Virus record (IMG/VR): IMGVR_UViG_3300016471_001035
Span: 64,001-128,000 of that record
Length of the DNA: 64,000 nucleotides
Strand: one strand, 5' to 3'
Source: a virus
Notes under the pieces: generated by a model
What the model was told of the DNA's origin: nothing
The model's database searches: none
The model's input: only the letters and a program-made list of their open reading frames with translations
Made by a program: the position numbers and the translations under genes
Shown: positions 7,422 through 63,317 of the stretch, piece after piece
Layout of the letters: each line of letters starts with the position of its first letter
Numbering within the stretch: the first letter of the stretch is position 1

Positions 7422-9229
7422 AATATATTACGTTTAATAAGATTAGTATAAAGAATTTTCTTTCTGTAGGCAATCAACCGGTAACCGTAGACTTTAAAAA
7501 AGGCATTCACATTATTACGGGTATTAATAAAGATAAAGAGGATAGGAGAAATGGGGTAGGTAAGTCAACTGTAGCAGATGCTATATATTTTGCGGTGTTT
7601 GGTGAAACATTACGCGATCTTAAAAAAGAAAATATAATTAACAACATCAATAAAAAAAATTGTGAAATTATTCTTGATGCAACTATTTCGAATCTAGATA
7701 ATAAAGAAGAAATACAAATTATTCGTACTCTAGAACCGTCTAAATGTTACGTTTATATTAACGGTGAAGATAAAACAAGGGATAGTATATCTAATACAAA
7801 TGCGTTTATAGCATCAAAATTTAATAGCAATACCGAGGTATTTCAAAATTGCGTTATTATGACTATTAATAATGTAATACCATTCATGGCTAAGAAGAAG
7901 CAGGAAAAGAGAAAGTTTATTGAAGATATTTTTAATCTAGGTGTATTTGGTGAAATGTTAGATATTTTAAAAAGTGATATTAATGAGAATAAAAAAGTTT
8001 TTGATTTAGAAGCAACCAAACACGATGAAATCACTAAGAATATTTTATCTCTTGTAAAACAGCAGGAAAATCTCTCACAAGAGAGATTGCGCAAAAAAGA
8101 AAAATACCTTACCAGACAAACTAGTAATGCTAGCGAAATAAATGATATTGTAAAAAAACTAAATGTATTTGTATTACCGGATATTCAGGAAATTAAAAAG
8201 AATATCTCTGAACAGGAAGCTAATAGCGCAAAAGCTGATAAAAAGCTTCAAGAAATTAGGCATTCTATATCTGAAAATACTACGTTAATATCACAAGCTA
8301 ACAAGAAGCTTTCTTCTGTAGGAACAGACAAAGACGTTTGTCCTACATGCCTGAGAAGCATTCAAGATGTAGATAGAAATCATATTAAAAATGAAAAGAA
8401 AAAGGTTAATTTAGAAATTGAGAGCTGTGAAGATACTATTTTAAAGCTTAAAGAGGATGAAAAGCAATTTATTTCAGTGCAAAATAAAATAGATGAAAAA
8501 ATACAAAAGCTTCGAGATAGCCTTATCTCTTATCAACATAAAGTAAAGGAAAAAGATAATTTAACTTCTCGACTTAATCAACTTAATACATGGCAAAAAG
8601 AATTAGAGCAGGATTTAAAAGAATTAGAAAATGACGGGCTGTCTTTTGATAATGTTATTAAAGAGCAAAAAGATAGACTAGAGCAGGTTAAACTGCAAAT
8701 TGAAAGTATAAAGGATAAACTTGGAATGCTTGATGTAGCTAAATTTGTTGTCTCAGAAGAAGGAGTTAAATCATATATTGTCAAAAAGATGCTTCAACTC
8801 TTTAATAGTAAACTTGCATATTATCTCAAAAAAATGGACGCCAATTGTATATGCACTTTTAACGAGTATTTTGAAGAAGAAATTATTGATAGCAGAGGTA
8901 AGCCCTGCTCATACTTTAATTTTAGCGGTGCGGAAAGAAAAAATATTGATTTAGCTTGCTTGTTTACATTTATGGATATAAGAAGATTGCAAGGAGATGT
9001 AACTTTTAACTTCAGTATTTATGATGAGCTTTTTGATTCGAGTTTAGATGAAAAGGGTGTAGAGCTTGTAATAGGTATTTTGAAAGAAAGAGTTGAGAAA
9101 TATAACGAGTGTATTATGGTAATTAGTCATAGAAAAGAAAGTATTAAAGCTGCGACCGGCGATATTATCTTTTTAGAAAAGTCTAACGGTATTACTAAGA
9201 GAGTTGATTATAAAGAGTATAGCAGTTAA
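7418..9229 (+). CDS. gp46: recombination ATPase gp46 (Rad50/SbcC-like)
   Basis: KNFLSVGN, NGVGKST, CPTC zinc hook, FSGAE, DELFDSSLD, ISH; ATG 7418 overlaps the gp47 stop. Confidence 0.93.
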   Translation: MKYITFNKISIKNFLSVGNQPVTVDFKKGIHIITGINKDKEDRRNGVGKSTVADAIYFAVFGETLRDLKKENIINNINKKNCEIILDATISNLDNKEEIQIIRTLEPSKCYVYINGEDKTRDSISNTNAFIASKFNSNTEVFQNCVIMTINNVIPFMAKKKQEKRKFIEDIFNLGVFGEMLDILKSDINENKKVFDLEATKHDEITKNILSLVKQQENLSQERLRKKEKYLTRQTSNASEINDIVKKLNVFVLPDIQEIKKNISEQEANSAKADKKLQEIRHSISENTTLISQANKKLSSVGTDKDVCPTCLRSIQDVDRNHIKNEKKKVNLEIESCEDTILKLKEDEKQFISVQNKIDEKIQKLRDSLISYQHKVKEKDNLTSRLNQLNTWQKELEQDLKELENDGLSFDNVIKEQKDRLEQVKLQIESIKDKLGMLDVAKFVVSEEGVKSYIVKKMLQLFNSKLAYYLKKMDANCICTFNEYFEEEIIDSRGKPCSYFNFSGAERKNIDLACLFTFMDIRRLQGDVTFNFSIYDELFDSSLDEKGVELVIGILKERVEKYNECIMVISHRKESIKAATGDIIFLEKSNGITKRVDYKEYSS

Positions 9230-9232
9230 TAT
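9204..9232 (+). promoter_or_regulatory. early sigma70-type promoter (leaderless geometry)
   Basis: TTGATT-N17-TAATAT-N5-ATG. Confidence 0.6.
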
Positions 9233-9237
9233 TAGTT

Positions 9238-10458
9238 ATGCAGTCTCTTCCCTTTGCCTCTCCTTTTGTCTCACCCTTTGCAAATCCGATTGTTTCTCCT
9301 TTTGGTAATTTAAACGTACCTAGAGAGCAAAGTCTTCCCCGCCCACCTGAAATGGATTTAAAGAGGGCTATGAACTACTACGCAGATTACAGTGGTTGCG
9401 GTTTCTGGAGAATGATATGGCCGGAGCACGTTTTAAATGCTCATCAAAAGCTAGTTATGCACGGAAGCACGGTAATGTGTTTTGATCCTAATTATTATCG
9501 AGGAACAGAGTGTATTCGAATTCAAAGACAAGCAACTGTTAGCCAATTAAGATTTGTAAAATTTTTAAAAGAATTAAGCTCTAAAGTCGGATTTAGAATG
9601 GTTTATGAAATAGACGATCTGGTTTTTAGCGAAGATATCCCAGAATACAATAAGTTTAAGCCAGCATTTACTGATCCAGAGATAAGAAAAACTGCACAAA
9701 CTATTATGGAGATGTGTGATGAAATTACTGTAACATGTGATTTCATGAAAGAGTATTATTTAGATAAAACTGCAAACAAAAATATAACGGTAATACCAAA
9801 CTATCCACCGAAGTTTTGGATGGGTAATTACTATGATGAAAAAAGGATCTCATCTAATTTTGATGAGTTTTCTAGCAAGCCAAGAATTCTTTATGCGGGC
9901 TCCGGCGCACATTTTGATGTTGATAACCGAGTAGGCCAGAATGATGACTTTTATCATGTAATTGATGCAATAATTAAAACAAGAAAAAAATATCAATGGG
10001 TATTTTTAGGAGCGTTTCCTCTCCCCTTGAAGCCGTATGTTCAAAACGGTGATCTAGAATTTCACACCTGGCAACAGCTTTATTCTTACCCGGAGAAGAT
10101 TTTTAACCTAAAAGTTAATATGATGGTCGCGCCCTTACAAAACAATACCTTTAATAAAGCAAAAAGCGATTTAAAGTATATTGAAGCATGCTGCTACGGG
10201 CTACCTATTGCTTGTCAAGATTTAGTAACATACAGTAACGCACCTATAAAATTTAATACAGGAGACGAAATGATAGGTCAGATAGAAGAAACCTTAGCCA
10301 AAAAAGGTAAATATATGAATATGTGTGCAAGATATCGTAAGGTTGCAGAAGATCGTTGGCTTGAAAATGAAGATAATATAAACAAATATGTAGAACTTTA
10401 TACCTTGCCTTTTGGGCATCCTAATAGAAGTTTATTAAACAAAATTAATAATTTATGA
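9238..10458 (+). CDS. GT-B fold glycosyltransferase
   Basis: GCGFWRM, YEIDD, VIPN, APLQNNTFNKAKSDLKYIEA..GLP motifs. Confidence 0.75.
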   Translation: MQSLPFASPFVSPFANPIVSPFGNLNVPREQSLPRPPEMDLKRAMNYYADYSGCGFWRMIWPEHVLNAHQKLVMHGSTVMCFDPNYYRGTECIRIQRQATVSQLRFVKFLKELSSKVGFRMVYEIDDLVFSEDIPEYNKFKPAFTDPEIRKTAQTIMEMCDEITVTCDFMKEYYLDKTANKNITVIPNYPPKFWMGNYYDEKRISSNFDEFSSKPRILYAGSGAHFDVDNRVGQNDDFYHVIDAIIKTRKKYQWVFLGAFPLPLKPYVQNGDLEFHTWQQLYSYPEKIFNLKVNMMVAPLQNNTFNKAKSDLKYIEACCYGLPIACQDLVTYSNAPIKFNTGDEMIGQIEETLAKKGKYMNMCARYRKVAEDRWLENEDNINKYVELYTLPFGHPNRSLLNKINNL

Positions 10459-10634: not shown

Positions 10635-10662
10635 TTGTACTTTTTATTAATGTAGTTATAAT
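10635..10662 (+). promoter_or_regulatory. early promoter of gp43
   Basis: TTGTAC-N16-TATAAT-N6-GTG. Confidence 0.75.
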
Positions 10663-10668
10663 AGTATT

Positions 10669-13257
10669 GTGTATAGAAATGTTGCATATCTTCCTAGAGA
10701 GCAGCTTATGCGGCTATTTACTTGGGATAATGAGGGTAAAAGAGTAGCCCTTGATACAACCTATGAGCCGTACATTTATCTCGAAACAAATAATCATCCT
10801 GACTGTACTAGTATCTTTAACACCAAATTAAAGAAAAAAAGATTTAAAAATCAAGCTGAACGCTCTAGATATTTAAAAGACAATAAAATTGTAAGAGTAT
10901 TTGAAAATCTTAATATTCAACAGCAATTTTTAATTGATAATTTCTGGGAGCACAATGAAAAAGAGGATTTTACTAAACATCAAATAAGAGTTTTGTTTAT
11001 TGATATTGAGACTTACAGTCCCGATGAGTTTCCTAAACCCGACGATCCCACCCATCCCATTAATATTATTACAGTTTATGATACACTAAGAAATAAGTTT
11101 ATTACCTGGGGACTAAAAGCATATCATAAAAATATTGAAAACGGGCTATATATTTATTGTAAAACTGAGAAAGAGTTGTTATCAAAATTTTTAAGTTTTT
11201 TTACTTCTGATTATCCCGATATACTCTCAGGCTGGAATAGTGAATTTTTTGACGTACCTTATATTATTAATAGAATAACCCGAATTCTTGGTGAGGATGA
11301 GACAAAAAAATTATCACCAGTTGGTTATATTAGACCTATTATGTTCAAAGGTAAGTTTGGTAGAGAACAGGTGCACTGGCACATAGAGGGCGTTTCATGT
11401 GTAGATTACCTAGACATTTATAAAAGATTTTGCCCTACATTACGCGAATCATATAAACTTGATTCTATTGGTGAGATTGAATTGGGTGAAAATAAGATTG
11501 ATTACGGTGATACTAATCTTACTAGCCTTGCAGATGATAATTGGGAATTGTTTGTAGAGTATAATATCCAGGACGTTAATTTGCTGGTAAGGTTAGAGCA
11601 AAAACTTCAATATCTTGAATTATTAAGGATGATTGCTTATGCGGGGTTAACTACATTTGAAGGCGCTCTTGGTTCATTATCAGTAATTACGGGTTTATGT
11701 GCTATTAGAGCGAGGTCTCGTAATCAAAGAATCCCTACTTTTAATAAGGAAGTTCACAGCGATGAACAAAATGCTGGTGCGTATGTTGGTGAACCACGCA
11801 AAGGGTTTCAGGAGAATATAGTTTCATTTGACGCTAATAGTCTATATCCAAATGTTATGATAACATTAAACCTCTCTCCTGAAACAAAGGTAGGGGTAAT
11901 CACAGATAAAAATGATAAAGAAATAACTATACAGCATGTAAACGGACAAGAATTTAAATTATCACATCAAAGCTTTGTTGATTTTGTAAAGAAAGAAAAG
12001 ATAGCTATTTCAAAAGCAAAAGTTTTATTTACTCAGAAAGAAAAAGGAATTATACCGGTAACTGTAGATCATTTTTACAAGAAGAGAGTAGAGATTAAAA
12101 GACAGCTTAAACTTTTACAAAAGAAAATTATTTCTATAGAGAAAAACACAGATGAGTATAAGCAACTCAAATTGCAGATAGATAATTTAAATATTACTCA
12201 ACATACTATAAAAATCTTAATTAATACCATATACGGTTATTTCGGTAATAAGCACAGTCCCTTAGGCGATGATCAGCTAGCTGAGAGTATTACTCTTACA
12301 GGCCAAGCTGTAATTAAAGAATCTAATAGATTATTAGAAGAGTATGTAAAAAGTAAGACAGGAATGAGTAATGAAGATATCATAAAAGATACGCCTATAA
12401 TTTACAATGATACTGATAGTTCGTACATTTCTATTAAACATATCGTACAAAAAACAGGATTAAAAATGCTTGATAGTAAGGGTAAAATTACTTCTGAATA
12501 CTATAAAGAGGTACAGTCAATAGAGGACTATCTTAATAAAAATATTGTTGTCTGGGGTCAAACTGCGCTTGGTTCGCAAGATTGTAGGTTAAATTTTAAG
12601 AGAGAAGCTATAGCAGATGCAGGGATTTTTCTACAGAAAAAGAGATATGTACTTCACGTATTAGATGAGGAAGGCATACCATGCAATAAGTTTAAGTATA
12701 CAGGGGTAGAAGTGGTTAGGACTACTATGCCTGCGCCTATAAAGCCCCACGTTAAAAAGATTATTGAGACAATGTTATTAACAAAAGACCTAGCAGCTAC
12801 TAATAAAATTTTTAATGAAACTTATGAAATATTTAAAAACCTTAGCGTAGAAGATATAGCTTTTGTAATGGGCATTAAGGGGTATGAGAAATATTCATCG
12901 ATGTGTGACGGCTTTAAGACAGCAAAACATATGCCTATTCACGTAAAAGCTGCATATTTTTATAATATTTTGCTCGATAGGTTTAATACAGGTAAAAAGT
13001 ATGAAAAGATATCATCTGGAGATAAAGTAAGATATTTTTATGCTAAACAGCCCAACAAATTCGGTATATCTACTATCGGCTATAAGTATTCCTTTCCTAA
13101 AGAATTTAATGATGTGTTCGAACCTGATCACGAATTAATGTTTGAGAAAATTATTTTCTCAGTTATTGAGAGATTTTATGATGCAGTTAATTGGAAGCTT
13201 CAATCCCCAGGGACACAGGTTCAAACTGACCTTTTTGATCTACTAAAAGAAAGTTGA
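10669..13257 (+). CDS. gp43: family B DNA polymerase gp43
   Basis: Exo DIET, GWNSEFFD, YNIQD; Pol DANSLYP, KILINTIYG, YNDTDS, KKRY; C-terminal clamp-binding-like DLFDL. Confidence 0.96.
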   Translation: MYRNVAYLPREQLMRLFTWDNEGKRVALDTTYEPYIYLETNNHPDCTSIFNTKLKKKRFKNQAERSRYLKDNKIVRVFENLNIQQQFLIDNFWEHNEKEDFTKHQIRVLFIDIETYSPDEFPKPDDPTHPINIITVYDTLRNKFITWGLKAYHKNIENGLYIYCKTEKELLSKFLSFFTSDYPDILSGWNSEFFDVPYIINRITRILGEDETKKLSPVGYIRPIMFKGKFGREQVHWHIEGVSCVDYLDIYKRFCPTLRESYKLDSIGEIELGENKIDYGDTNLTSLADDNWELFVEYNIQDVNLLVRLEQKLQYLELLRMIAYAGLTTFEGALGSLSVITGLCAIRARSRNQRIPTFNKEVHSDEQNAGAYVGEPRKGFQENIVSFDANSLYPNVMITLNLSPETKVGVITDKNDKEITIQHVNGQEFKLSHQSFVDFVKKEKIAISKAKVLFTQKEKGIIPVTVDHFYKKRVEIKRQLKLLQKKIISIEKNTDEYKQLKLQIDNLNITQHTIKILINTIYGYFGNKHSPLGDDQLAESITLTGQAVIKESNRLLEEYVKSKTGMSNEDIIKDTPIIYNDTDSSYISIKHIVQKTGLKMLDSKGKITSEYYKEVQSIEDYLNKNIVVWGQTALGSQDCRLNFKREAIADAGIFLQKKRYVLHVLDEEGIPCNKFKYTGVEVVRTTMPAPIKPHVKKIIETMLLTKDLAATNKIFNETYEIFKNLSVEDIAFVMGIKGYEKYSSMCDGFKTAKHMPIHVKAAYFYNILLDRFNTGKKYEKISSGDKVRYFYAKQPNKFGISTIGYKYSFPKEFNDVFEPDHELMFEKIIFSVIERFYDAVNWKLQSPGTQVQTDLFDLLKES

Positions 13258-13281
13258 TTTTAAATTACTATAACATAATAT
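13254..13281 (+). promoter_or_regulatory. early promoter
   Basis: TTGATT-N16-TAATAT-N6-ATG. Confidence 0.65.
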
Positions 13282-13287
13282 ATCTAC

Positions 13288-13644
13288 ATGAGTAAAGAAA
13301 ATATTGTCACTTTTATCGATCACATTGGTAGAACTATTATTGCAACACATGTTGACCAAGATAAGTCACATTTAACTGTTAAAAACCCTGCCATTATCCA
13401 TGTTCAACCTACGCAGAACGGTCAGCTAAATGTGCAGACAATTCCTTTATTTTTTAGAGAATTTGTTGGTGAAAAATCTAAAGCTACAGGAACTACATGG
13501 AAGTTTAATTTACAAAATATTGTTCTAGGTATTGACATTGACAATGATCCTCGTCTGTTAGAACAATATAATAAGCTTTTTACTTTTGTAGCTCCATCCC
13601 CTGCAAAAGAATCAGCTCCTGTAATTAAGTTGTTCGACGAATAA
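13288..13644 (+). CDS. hypothetical protein
   Basis: 118 aa with its own early promoter, between gp43 and uvsX. Confidence 0.6.
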   Translation: MSKENIVTFIDHIGRTIIATHVDQDKSHLTVKNPAIIHVQPTQNGQLNVQTIPLFFREFVGEKSKATGTTWKFNLQNIVLGIDIDNDPRLLEQYNKLFTFVAPSPAKESAPVIKLFDE

Positions 13645-13652: not shown

Positions 13653-13680
13653 TTGTTTTTTATTTTTCAGTCTTTATACT
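13653..13680 (+). promoter_or_regulatory. early promoter of uvsX
   Basis: TTGTTT-N16-TATACT-N6-ATG. Confidence 0.7.
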
Positions 13681-13686
13681 AGTTTT

Positions 13687-14805
13687 ATGAGTAAAGACCT
13701 TAATAAAATATTTGCGTCACTAGATAAGCTTAATAGCGAAGCTTCTTTTTTAAACGAAAATGCACTTAGTAAAGTTGATGAGTGGTTTGATACTGGATGC
13801 TATGCTCTTAACGCTATTCTTGGCGGGAGTTGTCGCAACGGTGGCGTACCTAAGGGAAGAATAACAGGATTCTCTGGACCTAGTCAAACTGGTAAGACTT
13901 TTATTGTAAATAAGATTTTAGCTACTGCTCAAAAAAAAGGTATTACTCCCGTTATATTTGATACTGAAATAGCTATTGATGAAAATAGTACAAAAGGTGT
14001 AGGTTTGGATCCCGAAAATGTAAAATATGTGCCTGTTGACACCATTGATCAGTGTCGTAATCAAGTTAGTGCACTACTCGATAGTATTATAGAAAATGAT
14101 GCTAGAGGTAAATTTATACTTAGTATTGACAGTTTAGGCAATCTTGCTTCACAGAAAGAGCTCGATGACGTAGCTAAAGATAAATCTGCAGCGGATATGG
14201 GTCTTCGTGCAAAGTCTTTAAAGAGTATGTTTCGCACTTTAACCTTTAAGGCTGCAAAGGCTGGCGTTACAATTCTTTTTACCAATCATACGTATGATGA
14301 TCCAGCTGCAATGTTCCCAAGTCTTGTGAAGAATCAAGCCGGTGGCTCAGGCCCTGTATATATGGCAAGTATACTTGTACAGCTTGCCAAGCGCCACGAG
14401 AAGGAGGGCGAAGGTGATTCTATGGATGTAGAGGACAAGAAGCTAGCAGAAGCCAATAAATACAGCGGTACAACACTTCGTGCATTGACTGTAAAGAATC
14501 GCTTCTTGCCTCCGTTTTTAGAGACTGAAATGTATCTTTCTTTTAAAACCGGTCTTAACAAGTACAGTGGATTGCTTGGTATGGCTGCAGTGAGAGGTAT
14601 CGTTGAACAAAACGGTGCCACATACACAGTGGGGATTACAAGCGGTAAGTACAAGAAGGGTGATAAACTAGGGTATGCAAAGACTTTTGCAAAAGATCCT
14701 GCTTTCTACGAGGAATTTATTATTCCTGAGTTAGATAAGAGATTAATAGAGGAATACAAATATAATGCCAACGAAGAAGGTAAAGAAGAAGAACCTATCG
14801 AGTAG
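13687..14805 (+). CDS. uvsX: UvsX RecA-like recombinase
   Basis: DTGCYALN, GPSQTGKT, DSLGNL, DMGLRAK, NHTY, KNRF. Confidence 0.93.
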   Translation: MSKDLNKIFASLDKLNSEASFLNENALSKVDEWFDTGCYALNAILGGSCRNGGVPKGRITGFSGPSQTGKTFIVNKILATAQKKGITPVIFDTEIAIDENSTKGVGLDPENVKYVPVDTIDQCRNQVSALLDSIIENDARGKFILSIDSLGNLASQKELDDVAKDKSAADMGLRAKSLKSMFRTLTFKAAKAGVTILFTNHTYDDPAAMFPSLVKNQAGGSGPVYMASILVQLAKRHEKEGEGDSMDVEDKKLAEANKYSGTTLRALTVKNRFLPPFLETEMYLSFKTGLNKYSGLLGMAAVRGIVEQNGATYTVGITSGKYKKGDKLGYAKTFAKDPAFYEEFIIPELDKRLIEEYKYNANEEGKEEEPIE

Positions 14806-16851: not shown

Positions 16852-17754
16852 TTAAGCAGTACTGTACTTGTCAAATTCGTCGAAGCTTCTTCCACCTTTA
16901 TAACCTAGCTCTCTTGCGATTGAAGTAGGCTCGTCTTCTTCAGGATATTCTTCTACCGTTTCCACTTCACCGGTACCTTCGCCTTCTTTTTTCTCAGATG
17001 AAGGTGAAAAACTATTTTTAAATTTTAATGAATCAATAAAGTCCTGTACCATTTCGCTGTCTTTAGCCATCTTTTCATCATAGGCGCGAATAATAGCCTC
17101 TTCTACTTCTTTTTTAAGCTCAGGTGAATTATAAATATCGCTACCACTAGATACAGTTATTTCATCAGGCAATTCATTAAAGATTGGCATCCATTCTTTA
17201 ATAAATCTAACATCGTTTTTTATAAAGGTATTTGTTGTAGAAGCTGGTGTTGCAGGTGATGTACCAGGTGCACCGGGAGCAACTACTTTCTTACCCTCTA
17301 CCCCAGAGGTAACAGCTTGCTTGACTTGTGCTGGGCTAGCTGCTGCACCACCTTCTACATCTACTCTTAAAACGTTTAACAAATTGTCAACTATTCTAGC
17401 AGTGTATCTAGCTTCAGTACCGCCGAGTTTAAGTTCGTTTTTAATTAAATTTTCTAAATCTGTTCTAAATTTCATCTTAGATCCCGGATAATAAAGCTTA
17501 TATTCTTTACCATCTATAGTATGAATTGCGGGTTTAAAGAGCTTTGTCTGTATTGCTTGAAGTAAACGATTTGCAATTTCTGCTTTTGTTTTACCTTCCT
17601 TTGCAGCTGTTTTACCAATACCATACCCCTTGCCAGGCGCTTTTTCAATATCACCGGTATATCCTAGCTCGTCAGCATATATAGGTGCTTCTTTTAAAAC
17701 CCTAGGTTTTTTAGTTAAATAAGCTTCGAAAATAAGCTTTGTATCTTTGTTCAT
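16852..17754 (-). CDS. hypothetical late (probable head/internal) protein
   Basis: 300 aa; MNKDTKLIFEAY leader; upstream late box. Confidence 0.55.
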   Translation of the reverse strand: MNKDTKLIFEAYLTKKPRVLKEAPIYADELGYTGDIEKAPGKGYGIGKTAAKEGKTKAEIANRLLQAIQTKLFKPAIHTIDGKEYKLYYPGSKMKFRTDLENLIKNELKLGGTEARYTARIVDNLLNVLRVDVEGGAAASPAQVKQAVTSGVEGKKVVAPGAPGTSPATPASTTNTFIKNDVRFIKEWMPIFNELPDEITVSSGSDIYNSPELKKEVEEAIIRAYDEKMAKDSEMVQDFIDSLKFKNSFSPSSEKKEGEGTGEVETVEEYPEEDEPTSIARELGYKGGRSFDEFDKYSTA

Positions 17755-17755
17755 C

Positions 17756-17795
17756 TTGAATTATTTATTCTTTATATTATAATAAATCAGGAGGT
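17756..17795 (+). promoter_or_regulatory. early promoter and Shine-Dalgarno of the GATase
   Basis: TTGAAT-N16-TATAAT-N6-GGAGGT-N7-ATT. Confidence 0.7.
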
Positions 17796-18486: not shown

Positions 18487-19175
18487 AAACAGCATTTTAT
18501 TTTTGTACAAGAAATTCTAAAGCGCAAGATACTTTTGCATTTAAATCTCTTCAAAGAATTAAACTAGCTACTCTATGGGAGTTTACTATAATTTATAAGG
18601 AAAATAATAATGACGGATTAAGCTTAAATTATAATAGTGTTTTAGAAAAGCATGGTAAAGATTATGATAACATAGTTTTTATACACGATGATGTTTATAT
18701 TGACGATCTTGGAGTGGTAAATAAGCTAGAAAAAGCTCATAATGATTTTGATATTGTAGGTCTTGCTGGGGGGTTAAATCCTGAAATTAAAGCACCCGCC
18801 CTTTGGCATTTAATGTGTGGGGGGTTTAACAGCGGTAATTTGAGAGGAGCAGTAGCCCATAAATTTAATAATGATCAAATTTTTATGACCAATTTTGGCC
18901 CCACACCCGCTAGAGTTGCTATTTTAGATGGACTATTCCTAAGCGTTAAAACCGAATGTTTTTTAAAAAAGGAATTTAAATTTAATGAAAATTATAACTT
19001 CCATCATTATGATATTGCCACCTGTATTGATGCTAATAAAAACAAATTAAAGTTAGGGGTCGTCCCTATATGGGTAGTACATAATTCACCCGGTCTTCTT
19101 AATATCAACGATGCTACATTTAGCGCTAGTCAATCTATATTTTTAAGAGAGTATAGCAGTATTGATTCTGTATAA
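18483..19175 (+). CDS. GT-A fold (GT2-like) glycosyltransferase
   Basis: VFIHDDVYI, IVGLAG, LDGLFL, FHHYDI motifs; ATGA-coupled to the GATase. Confidence 0.75.
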   Translation: MKTAFYFCTRNSKAQDTFAFKSLQRIKLATLWEFTIIYKENNNDGLSLNYNSVLEKHGKDYDNIVFIHDDVYIDDLGVVNKLEKAHNDFDIVGLAGGLNPEIKAPALWHLMCGGFNSGNLRGAVAHKFNNDQIFMTNFGPTPARVAILDGLFLSVKTECFLKKEFKFNENYNFHHYDIATCIDANKNKLKLGVVPIWVVHNSPGLLNINDATFSASQSIFLREYSSIDSV

Positions 19176-19189
19176 TTTTAATATATCAT
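19162..19189 (+). promoter_or_regulatory. early promoter of gp41
   Basis: TTGATT-N16-TATCAT-N6-ATG. Confidence 0.7.
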
Positions 19190-19195
19190 AAGAGA

Positions 19196-20524
19196 ATGGT
19201 TAAATTAGATCTAGATTTTTTTGAGCTTATTATTGCTTATAAATCATTAACTGATGAAACCTATTTAGCTTCTGTTGTCGACCATATAAAGCCTATTTTC
19301 TTTAAAAATAAAGATATTAAAGTTATTTTTACAATAATAAGAGATTTTTATGAAAAAAGAAATGCATGTCCTACCTTAACAGAAATAAAATCGTATTTAA
19401 CTAACGATGAGCTTAAAAATTCATTTAAGAATGTTGTAACACAGTTTAATAATTTAGATAAAAATTTTAACACAGATGAATTATCTGCTAATACAGAAAC
19501 TTTTATAAAAGAAAAATCCGTATACCATACAATGATGGATGTAGTAGATGATATCAACAAAAATAGTGTCGACACTTCTAAAATTTTAGCTAAATTTGAA
19601 AAAGCTTGTAGTATATCTTTAACCACTGAAATAGGGTTAGATTTGTATGCTAATTTAGATAGAGTAATTGAAGACCTGCATTCTTCAGAAAAATATATTC
19701 CTTCTAAATGGAAATGGCTTGATGATAAAATAGGAGGTGGGTTTCTAGAATCTGGTAGAGCACTCTATTTGTTTGCAGGCGAAACAAATATTGGTAAAAG
19801 TATATTTTTAGGAAATGTAGCTATTAACATAGCTGAGCAAGGAAAGACTGTATTGCTTGTTTCTTTAGAAATGCCAGAAATAATTTATGCTAAAAGACTC
19901 GTTTCAAGTGTATCTAAAATACCATTAAGCCAATTAAAAATAGAGTCTGATTCTTTAAAAAATCAAATTAGCGAGTATTGTATTGAAAATCCAAACGCAA
20001 AAATTATTATAAAGGAGTTTCCTCCCGCAACAATTACGCCCAACCATTTAAAGGCTTTTATTAAAAAATTAATACAAAAAGGTATTAAGATAGATGCCAT
20101 AGTTTTGGATTACGTAAATCTATTACATTCGTCTATGGGTGATTCAAGCTATGAGCGTGTTAAGATTTGTACTGAACAATTAAGAGCTTTATCATATGGG
20201 TTTAATTGCCCTGTTATATCCGCTACTCAGTTAAACCGTGAGGGGTATGAAATAACTGACCCAGGTTTAAAGACAATATCAGAAAGTATAGGGTTGGCTA
20301 TGACAGGTGACGTTATTATGAGTATTTGGCAAGAAGATACAGATAAAGAACTTGGCATTATTAAAATGGGATTAATGAAAAACAGGTTTGGACCTAATTA
20401 CGGTCATTGTGCAATGAGGATAGATTATTCAACACTTACTATTACAGAAGACGAGCATATAAATGACACAGAAGCAAGCACTTCTTCAATTAGTACGTTG
20501 ACAAAATTAGCTATCGACAATTGA
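19196..20524 (+). CDS. gp41: DnaB-like replicative helicase gp41
   Basis: GETNIGKS, SLEM, IKEFP, LDYVNLL, SATQLNR, ISES, MKNRFG. Confidence 0.93.
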   Translation: MVKLDLDFFELIIAYKSLTDETYLASVVDHIKPIFFKNKDIKVIFTIIRDFYEKRNACPTLTEIKSYLTNDELKNSFKNVVTQFNNLDKNFNTDELSANTETFIKEKSVYHTMMDVVDDINKNSVDTSKILAKFEKACSISLTTEIGLDLYANLDRVIEDLHSSEKYIPSKWKWLDDKIGGGFLESGRALYLFAGETNIGKSIFLGNVAINIAEQGKTVLLVSLEMPEIIYAKRLVSSVSKIPLSQLKIESDSLKNQISEYCIENPNAKIIIKEFPPATITPNHLKAFIKKLIQKGIKIDAIVLDYVNLLHSSMGDSSYERVKICTEQLRALSYGFNCPVISATQLNREGYEITDPGLKTISESIGLAMTGDVIMSIWQEDTDKELGIIKMGLMKNRFGPNYGHCAMRIDYSTLTITEDEHINDTEASTSSISTLTKLAIDN

Positions 20525-21055: not shown

Positions 21056-21693
21056 TTACCGAGTTTGAAAAGCACATTTATAATTCTTATTTAAAAGTCA
21101 CTAGATCAAATAGTGAACTACCTTACAAACTTAGAAAAAATTTTGAAAAAGTTGACGATAAGCTTTATGTAGCCTTAAAAAAGCTTTCTTCTTTTTTTAA
21201 GAGATACCCCCATATAAAAATAGAGGATTTTTTTCGCGCGCCTTATTCTCTTTACCCTGACGAAAAATATTTTCCAATAGAATATTTTTATTCACTTAAA
21301 GCTATAAAGTCCTATACTTTGTTTAATAAGCAACAGACAAATCTTGATCCGGATAGCGATGAACAGCTTAATAGCATTAAAAATTCATTAATTTTTATAA
21401 AAAGTTTTTGTAGAGATAATAATTTAAATGTAGAAAATTATATTTTTCACAAAACAAAAAATGAATATTCATTTATTTTGCACTTAAAAGAACATAATGT
21501 CAACGTATATACTTTATTAGGATTTAATAACTTTGAGAAAATTCTTAGAGGCTGTAACCCCGATATTACAAAATTTATTATTGGTGAGGATATATACAAC
21601 AACATCCAGGTATTTAGAACACGTCTTTATAATTCAAAAAAAGCAAGTAAAGTTGTCGAATATGGACTTAAAAAAATATTAGAAAAAGCTTGA
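21052..21693 (+). CDS. hypothetical protein, possible gp59 helicase loader
   Basis: About 213 aa, basic/aromatic, immediately upstream of gp32 as gene 59 is in T4; TTG 21052 overlaps the rpsU stop. Confidence 0.45.
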   Translation: MITEFEKHIYNSYLKVTRSNSELPYKLRKNFEKVDDKLYVALKKLSSFFKRYPHIKIEDFFRAPYSLYPDEKYFPIEYFYSLKAIKSYTLFNKQQTNLDPDSDEQLNSIKNSLIFIKSFCRDNNLNVENYIFHKTKNEYSFILHLKEHNVNVYTLLGFNNFEKILRGCNPDITKFIIGEDIYNNIQVFRTRLYNSKKASKVVEYGLKKILEKA

Positions 21694-21717
21694 TTAAGCA
21701 AATAAAGTTATTATTAT
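21690..21717 (+). promoter_or_regulatory. early promoter of gp32
   Basis: TTGATT-N16-TATTAT-N6-ATG. Confidence 0.7.
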
Positions 21718-21723
21718 TATTCT

Positions 21724-22976: not shown

Positions 22977-23000
22977 TAATTAGTAGTTATATCTTATTAT
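22973..23000 (+). promoter_or_regulatory. early promoter of gp45
   Basis: TTGATA-N16-TATTAT-N6-GTG. Confidence 0.7.
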
Positions 23001-23006
23001 AAATGT

Positions 23007-25564: not shown

Positions 25565-25568
25565 TTAT

Positions 25569-48557: not shown

Positions 48558-48562
48558 AAAAT

Positions 48563-48568
48563 TATTTA
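48563..48568 (-). promoter_or_regulatory. late promoter (gp16)
   Basis: caTAAATA-N5-GTG. Confidence 0.65.
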
Positions 48569-48577
48569 TGTAAAATA

Positions 48578-48605
48578 TTGAATTTCTACAGTTATAATAT
48601 ATAAT
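48578..48605 (+). promoter_or_regulatory. early promoter of dut-gp44
   Basis: TTGAAT-N16-TATAAT-N6-ATG. Confidence 0.75.
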
Positions 48606-48611
48606 TTAAGT

Positions 48612-50029: not shown

Positions 50030-50615
50030 CAGTGTAGCTAGCAGGGTCTTTGTGACCTACTGCAGGAGATGAAGGTATCTTAACATTGATATTTTGTAAT
50101 TCTCTATCACCCTTACTTAGTTTCTTATTACCGACATCAGAAAGTCTGGTCTGACCAGGAGATAGAAATGGAACTTCTTGATTTTCATCTTTAAATTTCT
50201 TAGGCTTTATATTAGTTCTTTTGCCGGGATCATCTTTTTTAAATACCTCAGGAACATCCGGTAAATTTGGATATGAACTCTTTGGCTGTACTAAATGAGC
50301 AGGAATAGTTACGAAATCCTTATATCTGCCAGGTGCAATCTCGGATGTTATGTCTAAAACTACTTCGCCATTGTTATAGTCGTTGTTACCAGCGCCCTGA
50401 ACTGCAGGTAAAAGAGTTTTTACTGCTGATACCCTGAGGTTTAAACCACTATTCATCATTTCCTTGATCTTCTCTACGGTATTAACACCTTTATCCTTAA
50501 ACCAGGGATCTCTCAATGCATTTTCTTTAAAAATAACAAGATCTCCTGCTAAGAAGCCACCTAAAGTATAGCGCTGCATCCACGACTCATACAATTTGAC
50601 AAAATTACGGCTCAT
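50013..50615 (-). CDS. hypothetical late protein
   Basis: 200 aa; MSRNFVKLYE leader; late box. Confidence 0.55.
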   Translation of the reverse strand: MSRNFVKLYESWMQRYTLGGFLAGDLVIFKENALRDPWFKDKGVNTVEKIKEMMNSGLNLRVSAVKTLLPAVQGAGNNDYNNGEVVLDITSEIAPGRYKDFVTIPAHLVQPKSSYPNLPDVPEVFKKDDPGKRTNIKPKKFKDENQEVPFLSPGQTRLSDVGNKKLSKGDRELQNINVKIPSSPAVGHKDPASYTANYLP

Positions 50616-50671
50616 TTAAATTATTTATTGTTTTGCATTGCTTAAAATCGTTTTTAAAACATAAAAATCGA

Positions 50672-50679
50672 TATAAATA
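50672..50679 (+). promoter_or_regulatory. late promoter (gp25)
   Basis: TATAAATA-N5-GTG. Confidence 0.7.
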
Positions 50680-50684
50680 TGTAT

Positions 50685-51167
50685 GTGGCTACTATAAAAG
50701 TACAATCTATTGCTGAGCCAGAAAAGTCAGAAAGTAGTTTTTTGTATACAGATTTAAAACTAGATCTTCAAATAGACTATACAAAGAACAATGAGTTTTT
50801 AAAACGAAAAGAAGTAAGAGATTTACAAATAGATTATGATTACGCAGCTGTAAGAAACTCTATATTCAATTTATTTACAACAATTCCTGGTCAACGCATT
50901 TTAAACCCCGAATTTGGTTTAGGGCTACAAAAATATTTGTTTAACCCTGTCGATGAAGATATTGCCAGACTTATAGGTAATGATATTTTAAGAGGATTAA
51001 ATATTTTTGAACCTAGAGTTAGAGCTAACAGCATAGATGTTGTAGCTGATGAGTTAGAGCAGCAATACACCATAACTTTAATACTTACCTTATTAACTAT
51101 TGATCCTGTAACTGGTTTTAGATTGGTAGGTATATTAAGTAATACAGGATTCACATTTACAACATAA
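50685..51167 (+). CDS. gp25: baseplate wedge gp25
   Basis: SIFNLFTTIPGQRILNPEFG, FEPRV; GTG 50685 chosen from late-box spacing. Confidence 0.88.
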   Translation: MATIKVQSIAEPEKSESSFLYTDLKLDLQIDYTKNNEFLKRKEVRDLQIDYDYAAVRNSIFNLFTTIPGQRILNPEFGLGLQKYLFNPVDEDIARLIGNDILRGLNIFEPRVRANSIDVVADELEQQYTITLILTLLTIDPVTGFRLVGILSNTGFTFTT

Positions 51168-56000: not shown

Positions 56001-56456
56001 GATATATTATTTTTAAGAGATACAACAAAGCTTACAGAGTATAACACATTAACAAGTACTATTTCTTGCGGTTATCCTATTGTAGCGAAAGAAAAATTTT
56101 CAGACCTCTATACTGTAGTAAACAATAATATAATAAGCAATTACACTTACGGGTATGTGTTGCCTTTATCCGATTATTCTGTTGAATGGGGTTGGGGATT
56201 GGTAGCACCTAGAGGTCTTTCAGGTGATAGAATCTCAGATTATTATAAATTTTATGAGTATAAGCCTGTAGAGGATACAAGGTATTTTAATAATATTATC
56301 GATTGGGACAACTCAATGAATACACTTACATTTAATAATAGCTCTTTTAATAATTGGAAAAAAGATAATGGAATGATGCAAAATATGCTAAGTTACGAGC
56401 TAACTAAAGGATTAAGACTGTTTTTAAGCGGTAGTAACATTGTATATAACAATTAA
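53025..56456 (+). CDS. large baseplate protein with PKD domain and NHL/Vgb-like propeller (gp7-like position)
   Basis: WDFGDG..H.Y..PG.Y.V.L PKD motif; repeated D...N.WV blades. Confidence 0.65.
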   Translation: MANFVNYTYVYFYITNYTGTNTLTSYTLPNTPVTFYPDFTTSAILTATDNISNKIIRWDFGDGTFSNELTAVHHYEWPGEYSVRLTVYDKQGSSFDSSYRPVVKIYDYVYDQLQFRDYIKFIYDVPASKIQDPLIIERQNSWQSYPALSANGYTLNLYASGANGQYQNIDNFYDDKWSHLRALSRFYIKNRIGANFEFKSVSQVTTTNEEIYVKLANKKLILCKKDDEGAVLAGTKGTAEIYYVDDVAKNFTTREPPIFVFATFDSSKFEDWYSILHNSYPTINYPPYGFQNLKPAVLPIIKVRHNEATRLSITTTGIDGEGYLSATNFNMPEISWQNTEIPFVIRMKDRDNYTTKTYPPLSSSTINSSLSTLTAFDVKFGLIEQTNTGFKEVSTIKFYEDFNSEIPQSIGAFYKGYFVSPETTYNCKLTAQMTVVDPLNFPKDSLIGWIAAPQYNKLLRFFRQQIYSNCPGYLTVTISASRQYFNSFENRNVYAIQVAPSGNGPGKDYETWFADGTSDRVFKFNASGDILLDIPLNNAPTLSGGQIINVNYLSPVLSSAAPGSITLDRNNDIWVALFDSVSCIKIDATEGYVKAVAYPPYNNIVYSLSSSYNIPTLSGFAGENLLLPSSVDTDREDNLWVSYTHPASNFLVKYDSQGNYLFTVGMSALHSPVEIVIDRNRFVWLSTYNLTTSGASLTSRNDFLYKFTSTGALVSGYPLSGFRFIGNLTVDGNQNAWVVHNKDTVTRVSGEDGTTTDYIAGSGNFTNYIGSIGGIAVDTSSYLWVINNLNQRLYLIDTLLPPASSLEDYEYVEIEYPATSPENQPSTFEDKQLQAYGDWLGSRWINKHMLAETTTRVITGESTSFNIYPLSGVYNIQKVNENFNTEKFYKDLIFTENLEDKKIFFEDFLGTIVGDGKSMPYELGKTIYEKIANYVNNTSDIDSCNLDQLLSFCDELSVQFEQYNYPFPPQLLRLVNLLSIKHKKLWGDLNKYDILFLRDTTKLTEYNTLTSTISCGYPIVAKEKFSDLYTVVNNNIISNYTYGYVLPLSDYSVEWGWGLVAPRGLSGDRISDYYKFYEYKPVEDTRYFNNIIDWDNSMNTLTFNNSSFNNWKKDNGMMQNMLSYELTKGLRLFLSGSNIVYNN

Positions 56457-56459
56457 ATA
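56454..56459 (+). promoter_or_regulatory. late promoter
   Basis: TAAATA-N5-ATG; includes the upstream stop codon. Confidence 0.6.
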
Positions 56460-56464
56460 CTTAA

Positions 56465-59400
56465 ATGGTATCTAATAATAGATTTATTGATGAGAAGCTA
56501 TCAGTATCCATTACTTCTCTTGTTGCACCATCAAACCCTGTAGATAGCAATAAGCCTTTATCTTTTCAAGAATGGCTAAAATATAATAATTCTTTATTCA
56601 CTAATGCAGACGACTTTTTATCTAGATATCAATCTTATCTTAATAATTGGTATGAGATAAAAAATATTGCTAAGCCTGAGCAGGTTGCTATAACTAAATC
56701 ACTTTACACCTTATTAATTAATGAAATTGTACTTTCCTTTACTTCTACAGATGAAAGACGGTTTTTAAAAAATATTGATTTTAATAATAATAGAGATCTA
56801 GCTGTTGCTGTACCTTTTTTTGCTAAAAAAATTAAAGATATATGCTTATATTACAGTACATTAAGAGATGACGTTAAATCTTCTGTTGTACAGTACAATT
56901 TAAAAGGTTCTATTTACGGTACAAAAAACTTAATTTATAATCAAATATCAAAGTCATTAGAAACTGAAGATTTGACAGACTTAATTAGAACTTTAAACTA
57001 CTCTTTATCAGATATTAGAAATAATATGGTGGTAGATATAGAAGAGCTATATGATACTAATCAAAACTATTTTGATGTTAGCCCTTACCTTCCTGCATCA
57101 TCTTATGATGTCACAGAAGGTGAAAGAGAAAAATATTTTTCTGTTAATCAGTACGATATTGACCCAAATTTGTTTTTAAACTTTGATACTTCAATAGTAG
57201 ATGCAATTACGTCTTACCCGTTCTTTTTGCTAGAGTTTGGTACTAATAATTTTTCTGCTAACATACCAGGTCTTTCTTCTGAATCGCTAAACTATCTCAA
57301 AGATAGAGATTATATTAATACTGTTAACACAGAAGACAGAGACAATTTAAATCTTAATTTAAATTTAAACCAAATTACAAAGTTTATAGGTACTGATTTT
57401 TACTATATATCTACCAATTCTACTGGGGTAGAGTATCTTTCCGGTAGACTGTTTGTTGCAGATAATAATTTTGCAAATTATCTTAATAAAAGATACCCAT
57501 CTGTAGCAGCTATCCCGTCTTCTGAATTTATTAAATCAGGTAAAGATATAGGGCTTTTTTTTAAGCCTGATAAATTAGGGTTATCTAACTTCTACAGCTT
57601 TGGACTAGCTACGACAATTAAAAACTCAGTATTAAGTGCAGATACTGTATATGTGTTTCCAGATCCTTCTATTTACGGAGACATTTCTAGTTTAACTGAA
57701 GAGGAATTTAACTCCCCCATTGTTTATACAGACTTATCTTATTTTAATAAAATAGATTTTTCAAATCAATTTAAATTTGGTGATACTATAAGCGGGCCTT
57801 ATTTTCAAACTTTAAGAGCATATCAAGCACGTGAACAATCACTTGGCATAGGACTACAGGGGCTATCAAGATATACAGATTCACAAGATTTTTTTGAAGG
57901 GTATAAGAAAAATGTTTGGTCTAACAAAGATGTTTTTCCTATTATACCACAAAATGTTTTTCCTATAGATAATAGAATAGAAAAACTATATTCAATTAAT
58001 AAAACTATTACACAGCAAAAATCTGATATTTACGGTAACGATTATGTATTATATAAAGACGTTGAACCTTTAAAAAGACTATCTAATACCCCAACTAATC
58101 AAGGCGGATTAAAAATTTATTACTGCCTTTACATTGATGGGCATGTCTTTTTTGATGCTATTTCCGGCTACAACTTTGATTATACTGAATATTTACCTGC
58201 AAAAAATTATACAGGCATTCTATTAAAAACTACAACAAACATCCCACCAGGCACAGGGTATTATGTGCAGGGTCCTAATTATCTCACACCATCACCTCTT
58301 TCTGCTTCAAAATACAACAACGGTATTCCGGAATTTACTTTACCCTCATTAACAGCCGTTATAGTTTCATACAGATTTCAACCCGATACATTCTGCCCTG
58401 ATGAGATAAAAGTTAAGTTTGATTGTAGTGTTTACGACGGCGAAACTTTTGTATCACCTGCAAGCGGTCTTTTACCCGATACTTCATCCGACGAGCCAAC
58501 TTTTGATCCCGAAATAGCAAATGTTTATTATGGTATTTTAGTCGACGGTGGTGTTAATCCTAACGGTCCAGATTATAGAGCTAATTTTGTTTACCCTGGA
58601 GAATTTACCTTTACCCCACCGGTGTCTGCAGTAGAAGATGTTAACGGTAGTATTTTTGCTTATAATAGTGCTTCCCCTTGCGGTGATGATAATGTGTTTT
58701 CAGTATCCTATATTGAAAAGAGTAATTTCATGGATTATAAAATTCCTTTTAGAAATACACAGGTTATAGAAGGGCTTTCAGGTATTGATTCTAAGAGAAC
58801 GTTATATGAAACTAATTTTATAGATTATGGTCAACTTTATTATAGAAATTCTAATTCTTCTATAGTAGGTCCAGCATCAGCTGCATTAAGCGGAATGTAT
58901 TTAAAGTATAGTGTTAATATTGTAAATGAACTTAATAATAATCTAATTAACTTTGATATTGTATACGACACTATTATATTTGAAACAGAAAATTATCTTA
59001 TAGCGGACAAGCTTGTATTCGATTATGAGCAAAATAAAAACATAGATATATCAAAAAATGATTGTTATTTTCAGCGTAATGCCAATAAAGAGTTAGAAAA
59101 AATTTCTACTATATGGTATAACGAAGAAATAGATACGTTTTTCTTCTGTAAAACTGTATTATATAATCAGCTTAGCGCAACTAATTATAAAATAGTTTAT
59201 CCTGAAATTTATGCAATTAATGCTTCGAATTTAACTTTTAATAAAATTTATCCTCAAGTTTCTAATTCTGAATTAACTATAGATTACTTAAAAATGTTTT
59301 CATTATCTGGAAATAATATTGAAGTTAATATTATCAAAATAGATAAACCTTTATTTAATTATAATAATGAAACAGGTCTATACACTATTACCTGGCTAGG

Positions 59401-62006: not shown

Positions 62007-62014
62007 ATTTTTAT

Positions 62015-62042
62015 TTGATTTAAATACATTGTGTATTAAAAT
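62015..62042 (+). promoter_or_regulatory. early promoter of the glycosyltransferase cluster
   Basis: TTGATT-N16-TAAAAT-N6-GTG. Confidence 0.7.
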
Positions 62043-62048
62043 ATTAAA

Positions 62049-63317
62049 GTGAAAAATAACAAAGAATTAATTTTTATTTCAATAGCTTCATATAGAGATC
62101 CGCAGTTAGTACCTACTTTAAGAGATTGTGTTGCCAATGCTAAATATCCTGAAAATTTAAGGTTTAATATTTGTTGGCAAAAAGACGAGAAGGAATCATT
62201 AGAAGAGTTTACAAATGATTCGAGAGTTAAATACATTGAAGTTCCTTATAACGAGAGCAAAGGGACATGCTGGGCAAGAAGCAGAATTCAAGATAATTAT
62301 GATGGTGAAAAATATTATTTACAGCTAGACAGTCATCATCGCTTTGTAAAAGATTGGGATGAAAAATGTATTGGAATGGTCAAGCAACTTCAAAAGAAAG
62401 GACATAAAAAGCCTCTGCTAACTGGTTATATTTCTAGTTTCAATCCAGATAATGATCCCGCTGAACGTATACAAATACCATGGAAAATGAATTTCGATAG
62501 ATTTATACCAGAGGGAGCAGTTTTCTTTTTACCCGCATCAATCGACGATTATAAAGAACGAACTGAACCGCTACCAGCAAGATTTGTTTCAGCTCATTTT
62601 ATTTTTACACTTGGTAAATGGGTAAAGGAAGTTCCTTACGATCCTAATTATTATTTTCATGGTGAAGAAATTAACCTTGCTGTGAGATCATTTACTTGGG
62701 GATATGACTTATTTCACCCTCATATGGTAATCGCATGGCATGAATATACTAGACGAGGAAGAACGAAACACTGGGATGATGTTAAGGAATGGGGCGAATT
62801 TAACAGACTTTCGCACCTACGTAATCGTAAATTGTTTGGTATGGATGGTGAGATCGATGATATTAAGTGGGGAAAGTATGGATTTGGTAAGAAGAGAACA
62901 TTACAGGATTATGAAAAATATTCCGGTCTTTGTTTTAAAAAGCGTGCAGTTCAAAGATGGACGCTAGAAAATAAACTAGCACCAAATCCTAATGACAATC
63001 TTAGTGCGGAAGAATATGAAAAGTCTTTCTTAAAGATATTTAAGCATTGTATTGATGTCGGATATGACAAAGTGCCTGAAAAAGACTATGACTTTTGGTG
63101 TGTAGCATTTAAAGATAAAGAAGGTAAAGATGTATATAGAAAAGATGCTGATAGAGCTGAAATAGATAGAATGTTTAATGATCCGGACAAATATTGTAAG
63201 ATTTGGCGTGAGTTTAATGCAGAAGAAATGCCTCATAGCTGGATTGTATGGCCTCACAGTGTATCTAAAGGGTGGTCAGATCCTATAACTGGTGTAATAG
63301 GTAATAAAGTCAGCTAA
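62049..63317 (+). CDS. GT60-like (Skp1/polypeptide alpha-GlcNAc transferase family) glycosyltransferase
   Basis: IFISIASYRD, G.CWAR, LQLDSHHRF..WD, EVPYDP..YFHGEE, HEY. Confidence 0.8.
   Translation: MKNNKELIFISIASYRDPQLVPTLRDCVANAKYPENLRFNICWQKDEKESLEEFTNDSRVKYIEVPYNESKGTCWARSRIQDNYDGEKYYLQLDSHHRFVKDWDEKCIGMVKQLQKKGHKKPLLTGYISSFNPDNDPAERIQIPWKMNFDRFIPEGAVFFLPASIDDYKERTEPLPARFVSAHFIFTLGKWVKEVPYDPNYYFHGEEINLAVRSFTWGYDLFHPHMVIAWHEYTRRGRTKHWDDVKEWGEFNRLSHLRNRKLFGMDGEIDDIKWGKYGFGKKRTLQDYEKYSGLCFKKRAVQRWTLENKLAPNPNDNLSAEEYEKSFLKIFKHCIDVGYDKVPEKDYDFWCVAFKDKEGKDVYRKDADRAEIDRMFNDPDKYCKIWREFNAEEMPHSWIVWPHSVSKGWSDPITGVIGNKVS

Follow-up and report, generated by a model that had tools for sequence, protein, structure and literature searches.

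In the uncultured virus represented by the IMG/VR contig IMGVR_UViG_3300016471_001035 (139,594 bp), promoters of two classes are placed directly before start codons at distances fixed to the nucleotide, both in the 64,000-nucleotide (nt) stretch analysed here (bases 64001-128000 of the contig, hereafter the window, whose numbering is used unless genome positions are named) and across the whole contig. Sigma70-type promoters, with a -35 and a -10 box, sit before replication genes, and TAAATA boxes, which match the core of the late promoters of phage T4, sit before virion genes. These two classes differ in geometry and share the same predicted transcription start (+1), the first base of the start codon, which seems hard to explain otherwise, and it is quite likely that the promoter-proximal genes are expressed as leaderless messenger RNAs (mRNAs). 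A first-pass annotation of the window had proposed that transcription of the core replication genes begins at the first base of their start codons, and the register of the boxes, the lack of Shine-Dalgarno (SD) motifs and the conservation among relatives support this at the level of sequence. Its description of a leaderless programme across the window was too narrow, since the layout covers the whole genome, the clade and the late class.

The source of the contig is, judging by its genes, an uncultured, deep-branching T4-like phage. It encodes a T4-type replication set (family-B DNA polymerase gp43, UvsX, gp41 helicase, gp32, primase and gp44 clamp loader) and a T4-type virion set (terminase, sheath, tube and baseplate), and its deep-branching position follows from the fact that the best matches of the replication and virion proteins in cultured phages are just 29-39% identical. 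A megablast of 20 kb of the contig against cultured phages gave no match. The contig has a GC content of 33%, is classed as linear in its record and has a CheckV completeness estimate of ~66%.

Sigma70-class promoters and their register

Eleven genes had been reported in which the first T of a TTGnnn box lies exactly 34 nt 5' of the start codon, and all of them were confirmed, with an ATG or GTG opening a long open reading frame (ORF) in each case; ten read TTGnnn-N16-TAnnnT-N6-start and the other, at 9204, has the N17/N5 arrangement. In an annotation-free scan of both strands of the whole contig, TTGNNN-N(15-18)-TANNNT motifs were sorted by their distance to an ATG or GTG opening at least 50 codons. 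The bin with a 16-nt spacer and 6 nt to the start contained 22 sites, with the -10 box at -12 to -7, and the other bins contained roughly 0-3, save for the 9-nt bin, which held 6. When only the first start of each ORF was considered, TTGNNN-N16-TANNNT-N6-start was in register before 21 genes of the contig, whereas 1000 dinucleotide-preserving shuffles gave 0.12 such genes on average and never more than 2; the 34-nt spacing is in this sense far commoner than in shuffled sequence. Nearly all of the sigma70-class sites lack a further-upstream in-frame start.

The consensus of the class is TTGa.t-N16-TATAAT, with TTGATT-like -35 boxes before the replication genes, and T occupies -1 in 58-64% of the genes in register. 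As in sigma70 promoters, TTGACA-like and TATAAT-like boxes are separated by 17 +/- 1 bp, with a purine at position 7 after the -10 box; this base is A or G in all sites, as had been noted, since the starts are ATG or GTG. Sigma70 transcription most often starts 7 bp downstream of the -10 box, at a purine preceded by a pyrimidine, and starts more than 1 bp upstream of this position are rare (PMC5730371). An N6 distance therefore makes the A or G of the start codon position 7, the modal start site, and no leader or SD motif fits in between; the earlier remark that there is no room for an SD agrees with the 6 nt left after the -10 box and with the lack of an SD signal in the contig. A sequence criterion for leaderless genes is a TANNNT starting ~12 nt before the translation start (PMC3160421, PMC6028130), and here TANNNT lies at this distance, in excess over shuffled sequence and with no SD between promoter and start. 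The boxes were also correctly described as distinct from the Bacteroidota TAnnTTTG pattern, since that motif has no positional peak before starts and the segment from -14 to -7 reads nnTATAAT. No MotA-type middle box was seen in the contig.

The conservation of individual promoters was followed in ~300 related uncultured loci recovered by four IMG/VR scans, relatives being counted per aligned ortholog, and a promoter is called full below when it has both boxes and 6 nt between the -10 box and the start. The family-B DNA polymerase gp43 (start 10669) is preceded by TTGTAC-N16-TATAAT-N6-GTG (10635..10671, + strand, as for the following sites unless indicated), with a weak hairpin and T-run immediately 5' of it; the -10 box lies at N5-7 in 28/31 relatives and the full promoter is retained in 20/31, and distant polymerases align from residue 2. 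Behind the polymerase, TTGATT-N16-TAATAT-N6-ATG (13254..13290) precedes a 118-amino-acid (aa) ORF and is full in 27/34 relatives, and TTGTTT-N16-TATACT-N6-ATG (13653..13689) precedes the RecA-like UvsX and is full in 24/37. The promoter of the gp41 helicase, TTGATT-N16-TATCAT-N6-ATG (19162..19198), keeps its -10 box at N5-7 in 37/61 distinct relatives, among which the discriminator differs in sequence and is constant in length at 6. TTGATT-N16-TATTAT-N6-ATG (21690..21726), before the single-stranded DNA-binding protein gp32, occurs with N6 in 36/57 relatives and with N7 in 12/57. TTGATA-N16-TATTAT-N6-GTG (22973..23009), before a 243-aa ORF, is found at N5-7 in 34/47 relatives, and TTGTAA-N16-TATAAT-N6-GTG (25760..25796), before the primase, is full in 31/43. 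TTGCAA-N16-TATAAT-N6-ATG (27623..27659) serves a 149-aa ORF whose start is the ATG at 27657 rather than the TTG at 27654; it is present at N5-7 in 29/31 relatives and at N6 in 22/31. The dUTPase, with the gp44 clamp loader coupled behind it, has TTGAAT-N16-TATAAT-N6-ATG (48578..48614), conserved in 8/9 relatives with an aligned start.

These nine of the 11 sites are well conserved, and the other two, both before glycosyltransferases, are moderately so: TTGATT-N17-TAATAT-N5-ATG (9204..9240; 406 aa, PHROG) is in register in 19/42 distinct relatives and TTGATT-N16-TAAAAT-N6-GTG (62015..62051; 422 aa) in 19/34 relatives with an aligned start. A further site missed by the first-pass annotation, TTGAAA-N16-CATAAT-N6-ATG (3218..3254, - strand), precedes a 186-aa ORF (start 3220) and occurs at N5-6 in 17/44 relatives. 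Two additional sites reported at 36 nt do exist in the sequence and fare worse as promoters: TTGATT-N18-TTATTT-N6-ATG (3922..3960) is a weak candidate, in register in only 15/52 relatives, and the motif at 28472..28510, missing in 18/26 relatives, is probably not a promoter.

Genome-wide, 7/29 sigma70-type promoters overlap the stop codon of the upstream gene. At 13254-13257 (the polymerase stop), 21690-21693 and 22973-22976, the upstream TGA is contained in the TTGA of the -35 box and the gaps are exactly 30 nt.

Among the relatives, class and register are kept gene by gene down to ~35% N-terminal identity. Both spikes appear in each of three divergence groups (to 56% helicase identity), with 126, 48 and 49 sites for N16/N6 and 88, 31 and 35 for TAAATA-N5, and close relatives have 126 sites with the N16 spacer against 16 with N17. 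An identical script was applied to 100 kb of T4, 50 kb of the pelagiphage Mosig and 50 kb of the freshwater cyanophage S-CRM01, and the sigma70-class spike was absent from all three. Clear SD peaks were obtained in T4 and Mosig with the script that gives none here; the 100 kb of T4, with SD peaks and no fixed-distance spike, agree with the earlier statement that T4 uses SD-led leaders. In the present contig, there is no SD peak at any distance, and the histograms of GGAG, AGGA and GAGG are flat.

The label "early", which had been attached to these promoters, is loose: they precede replication genes, and a separate, stronger cluster of the TTGACT type lies outside the window. It comprises 9 further sites at 2-9 kb of the genome that are stronger than those of the window and absent from the earlier list. 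At least nine near-identical modules, formed by TTGACT, a conserved 16-nt spacer, TATAAT, an AGGAGT-like discriminator and ATG, were observed at genome positions 2147-8763, followed by ORFs of 55-113 aa. Judging from these modules, the cluster looks like the true immediate-early region, and its purine-rich AGGAGT-like discriminator should keep the start site at position 7.

Genes for glycosyltransferases, a QueC-like enzyme and a nucleotide-sugar epimerase are interspersed among the replication genes (9238-10458, 14765-15535, 24438-25274 and 62049-63317), and several of them have their own sigma70-type promoter. Together, they may constitute a DNA or virion modification pathway.

The TAAATA class and the gp55 homolog

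Starts of long ORFs are preceded by TAAATA at a distance of exactly 5 nt in 37 cases and 6 nt in 15, over a background of ~1 per bin, and the ~50 starts with this spacing include those of the sheath, two tube paralogs, the baseplate hub and wedge, and the tape measure. The logo of the class, aATAAATA.TtaT-start, has an AT-rich pentamer after the box and no conservation at -35 or further upstream, and its first two positions are A-rich rather than TA. In T4, the late box TATAAATA has its first T at -13 and spans -13 to -6 (PMC2988020), and TAAATA-N5-ATG would therefore put +1 on the A of ATG. The class has the attributes of T4-type late promoters, namely a box without -35, an AT-rich downstream segment, a phage gp55 and virion genes downstream. 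The gp55 late-sigma homolog is encoded at 5734..6360 (+ strand), with tblastn identities of 42% to gp55 of Mosig (E 4e-24) and 35% to that of T4, and it likely reads the TAAATA class.

In the tail region, on the + strand, the box occurs as TAAATA-N5-ATG before a tail-tube paralog (34402..34417) and the tail tube (37371..37386), as TAAATA-N6-ATG before the tail sheath (35057..35073), and as TAAATA-N5-GTG before a 302-aa ORF (37944..37959). It is followed by N5-ATG before the baseplate hub (39690..39705; N5/6 in 14/16 relatives) and by N6-ATG before a tape-measure-like protein (40468..40484; N6 in 8/9). The baseplate wedge, with its start at 50685, has TAAATA-N5-GTG (50672..50687, +), kept at N5 in 45/47 relatives, and a virion ORF of 1047 aa has TAAATA-N5-ATG (56452..56467, +), kept in 28/29. 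On the - strand, TAAATA-N6-ATG precedes ORFs of 302 aa (32677..32693) and 200 aa (50613..50629; N5-7 in 44/49 relatives), and TAAATA-N5-GTG (48555..48570) precedes a 154-aa ORF divergent from the dUTPase promoter, with N5 in 22/44 relatives. Other members on the + strand are TAAATA-N6-ATG at 24077..24093 and TAAATA-N5-ATG at 25556..25571, before a 62-aa ORF.

Two arrangements place the boxes in very short intergenic spaces. At 27223..27258, divergent late boxes share a 30-nt gap, TAAATA-N5-ATG on the - strand (start 27225) and TAAATA-N5-GTG on the + strand (start 27256), and N5 is kept in 27/34 and 24/26 relatives for the first and the second start. Moreover, strong terminators at some loci are followed directly by TAAATA-N5-start, as at 31697..31745 (- strand), where a terminator hairpin (-15.5 kcal/mol) and T-run precede TAAATA-N5-GTG with 21 nt from the T-run to the start. 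TAAATA-N7-ATG (17752..17769, - strand), before a 300-aa ORF, departs from the usual distance, and N7 rather than N5 is found in 28/39 relatives; this conserved distance predicts a 2-nt leader (AG) or a shifted start site.

A weak form of this late layout may be older than the clade. The whole record of Mosig contains 11 TAAATA-N5-ATG sites, compared with 3 for the reversed pattern used as a control, and the annotated tail-tube start at 24964 has one of the 11. The corresponding counts in T4 are 10 and 5.

Genome-wide layout, start codons and competing explanations

A promoter is in register for 92/188 ORFs of the contig, of which 29 have a sigma70-type promoter, 7 a -10 box only, 50 a TAAATA box and 6 a near-TAAATA box, and none of these 92 genes starts with TTG. 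The gaps before promoter-bearing genes measure ~30 nt. Of the same-strand genes, 78 have no motif; in 64 of these the upstream stop is no more than 10 nt away, and 46 overlap it, with 20 overlaps of -4 and 11 of -1; thus, nearly every gene is either promoter-abutted or translationally coupled. The coupled genes are also motif-free in relatives, as observed for gp44 (49/50), the ORF at 53025 (40/44) and the ORF at 4347 (62/62). GTG starts were commoner in late-class in-register genes (13/50) than in coupled genes (6/96).

Leaderless expression would begin with the host RNA polymerase and its primary sigma factor, which would read TTGAnT-N16-TATAAT before genes of replication and nucleotide metabolism. 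At a later stage, the (A)ATAAATA boxes of virion genes would be recognized by the polymerase carrying the phage gp55 sigma. For either class, the predicted first transcribed base is the start codon's A or G, with 6 nt between it and the -10 hexamer or 5-6 nt between it and TAAATA; the resulting 5'-AUG or 5'-GUG mRNAs would be translated without SD contact, by direct binding of a ribosome carrying initiator tRNA. Cistrons further downstream overlap the stop before them or adjoin it, and would therefore depend on termination-reinitiation coupling. The sequence itself shows the motifs, their exact register, the lack of SD, the coupling geometry, the conservation in the clade and a gp55 gene, whereas the transcription start points, the pairing of each box with its sigma factor and the mode of ribosome loading are inferred. 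For leaderless initiation in mycobacteria, a 5' ATG or GTG is both required and enough, and TTG does not serve (PMC4633059), which agrees with the start codons used here.

Several observations weigh against this account. Perfect-stem searches for terminators found 2 sites, and a relaxed energy-based search found 5 hairpin and T-run candidates in the 70 nt preceding genes, numbers too small to be tested statistically; intrinsic terminators are scarce and read-through polycistronic transcripts must therefore also exist. Sites at N5, N7 or N9 also occur, which implies leaders of 0-3 nt or some flexibility of the start site. Contig ends of 80 related IMG/VR loci were not enriched at start codons, and the relatives' records are therefore DNA assemblies. 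In the ~66%-complete contig, tblastn with gp45 of T4 and Mosig and with gp33 of S-CRM01 gave no match, nor did a search with Pfam PF09116, and the gp44 clamp loader is present. Finally, leaderless mRNAs are translated poorly in Escherichia coli (PMC4633059).

Since read-through must exist, with promoters every few hundred bases, the promoters could fire at the start codon while most protein is made from read-through polycistronic mRNAs, the abutting promoters serving to boost downstream transcription in a compact genome, and the promoters that overlap upstream stop codons point to such compaction pressure. However, compaction by itself would not account for a constant 6 nt after the -10 box and 5 nt after TAAATA across relatives with diverged flanks, nor for the exclusion of TTG starts; genes carried on a read-through mRNA would still lack an SD, and the ~30 nt between them and the upstream stop exceed what simple coupling can span, all of which makes this explanation improbable. 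A still smaller chance is given to the possibility that the promoters are real and the start codons mis-called, so that translation would begin at a downstream codon and the apparent N-terminus would be a 5' untranslated region. The starts are indeed predictions, and the first ATG is probably wrong in two cases: at 3913, where 31/40 relatives have no start codon and the alignments begin at 3958, which the relatives support, and at 50679, where the ATG overlaps the late box, is probably not the wedge start and gives way to the GTG at 50685 favoured by relatives. Nevertheless, homologs, including those of distant T4-like phages, align from residues 1-4 of the predicted proteins, and the start codons are therefore well placed; the N-terminal peptides are conserved among relatives, and the box is tied to the first possible start of the ORF with single-nucleotide precision, for which there would be no selection if that region were untranslated. 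In such genomes, gene-calling programs that look for ribosome-binding sites will put starts in the wrong place, choosing 27654 over 27657, 3913 over 3958 and 50679 over 50685.

The AT-rich boxes could also act in longer mRNAs as non-SD ribosome-binding or enhancer motifs, comparable to the TAAAAA found ~7 nt before starts in Flavobacterium. For the late class, no other rival carries as much weight. GeneMarkS-2 reports a motif of this kind in Bacteroidota (PMC6028130), the present genome has no SD, and it encodes the ribosomal protein bS21, a neighbour of the anti-SD on the ribosome (PMC10491246). However, TAAATA alone peaks, within just 1-2 nt, whereas TAAAAA (658 copies, twice as common), AAAAAA, TAAAAT and all one-base variants are flat, and the sigma70 class is bipartite, with its -35 box at a fixed 16-nt spacer. 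In addition, the two motifs segregate with the temporal class of the genes (replication or virion), coupled genes lack them here and in relatives, terminators stand directly 5' of some boxes, divergent pairs fit two boxes into a 30-nt gap, and TAAATA matches the T4 late box in a genome with gp55. A ribosome-binding function of the boxes is accordingly very unlikely.

Known leaderless systems, the host and significance

Leaderless mRNAs are known from lambda cI (PMC10491246) and from Actinobacteria and Deinococcus-Thermus (PMC3160421, PMC6028130). The leaderless genes of the latter two phyla, group C of GeneMarkS-2, resemble those described here in having a TANNNT ~12 nt upstream, no SD and ATG or GTG starts, and mycobacterial leaderless genes likewise start with ATG or GTG and never with TTG. 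In contrast to group C, the layout is found here in a phage of 33% GC, with a strong -35 box, a fixed 16-nt spacer and about half of the genes affected; internal cistrons lack the SD motifs that internal genes of group C genomes do use, and the same layout would be shared by a second class of promoters dependent on a phage sigma factor. In phage lambda, the cI mRNA transcribed from pRM likewise has its AUG at the 5' end and needs no SD to be translated (PMC10491246), but it concerns a single regulatory gene, while here about half of the genes have such a layout by default.

Among phages, the Thermus phage phiYS40 produces most of its middle and late transcripts as leaderless mRNAs, and IF2 increases and IF3 decreases during its infection (PMC3594737). 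The present virus would likewise be a large lytic phage relying largely on leaderless mRNAs, here as predicted from sequence. Kinship with phiYS40, suggested by similar size and GC content, was rejected: phiYS40 has a family-A polymerase (PMC9324360), in contrast to the T4-type gp43, gp41, gp32 and UvsX found here. The two are unrelated, the host phylum of phiYS40 is rich in leaderless genes, and the virus studied here is T4-like, with promoters of host-sigma and gp55 types both fused to starts.

With T4, the virus shares the core of the late box, the lack of a -35 element, the AT-rich downstream segment and gp55, as well as sigma70-type promoters for early and replication genes (PMC2988020). 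However, T4 promoters lie tens of bases upstream of the genes, and T4 uses SD-led leaders. Mosig, a cultured T4-like myophage of Pelagibacter, has the weak late-class layout, bS21 and gp55, but differs in lacking the sigma70-class spike and in having SD peaks. Literature searches turned up no description of a T4-like phage whose promoters abut its start codons in this way.

The host was approached through bS21 (20843-21055; PF01165, E 4.5e-11), which is encoded just downstream of the gp41 helicase and is conserved beside it in relatives with at least 66% helicase identity. Single-sequence and profile scans of bacterial genomes gave no close cellular homolog of it, a search of a protein atlas returned only viral S21 clusters, and a comparison with solved ribosomes placed all bS21 proteins at about equal distances. 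No tRNA genes were found in the window. The promoters are of the classical sigma70 type rather than the Bacteroidota type, and the total absence of SD resembles what is seen in phages of SD-poor hosts.

On the ribosome, bS21 adjoins the anti-SD, and its absence favours translation of the leaderless lambda cI mRNA in E. coli (PMC10491246). A requirement of bS21 for the layout was considered and weakened, as five more distant records (26-59% complete) keep the layout and have no PF01165 match; because these distant, incomplete records lack an S21 match, the link between bS21 and leaderless expression is only a hypothesis. It is conceivable, though rather doubtful, that the whole clade has abandoned SD, with every transcription unit, of the host-sigma or the gp55 type, starting on its own start codon, all other cistrons coupled and no mode of translation in use other than SD-independent loading at a 5'-terminal AUG or GUG and subsequent reinitiation, and that the phage bS21 tunes host ribosomes in favour of these mRNAs as a takeover device.

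Textbook accounts of phage gene expression take T4 as their model, and T4 relatives rank among the commonest aquatic viruses. If leaderless expression holds, it would give T4-type phages their first example of a predominantly leaderless programme. With the exact register as a rule, promoters and starts of uncultured relatives could both be called to the nucleotide, and the layout predicts host ribosomes that are efficient on 5'-AUG and 5'-GUG mRNAs, which narrows the search for the host. Moreover, these phages could provide a natural system in which to study the choice of start site by RNA polymerase with gp55 and the interplay of leaderless and coupled translation through a lytic cycle.

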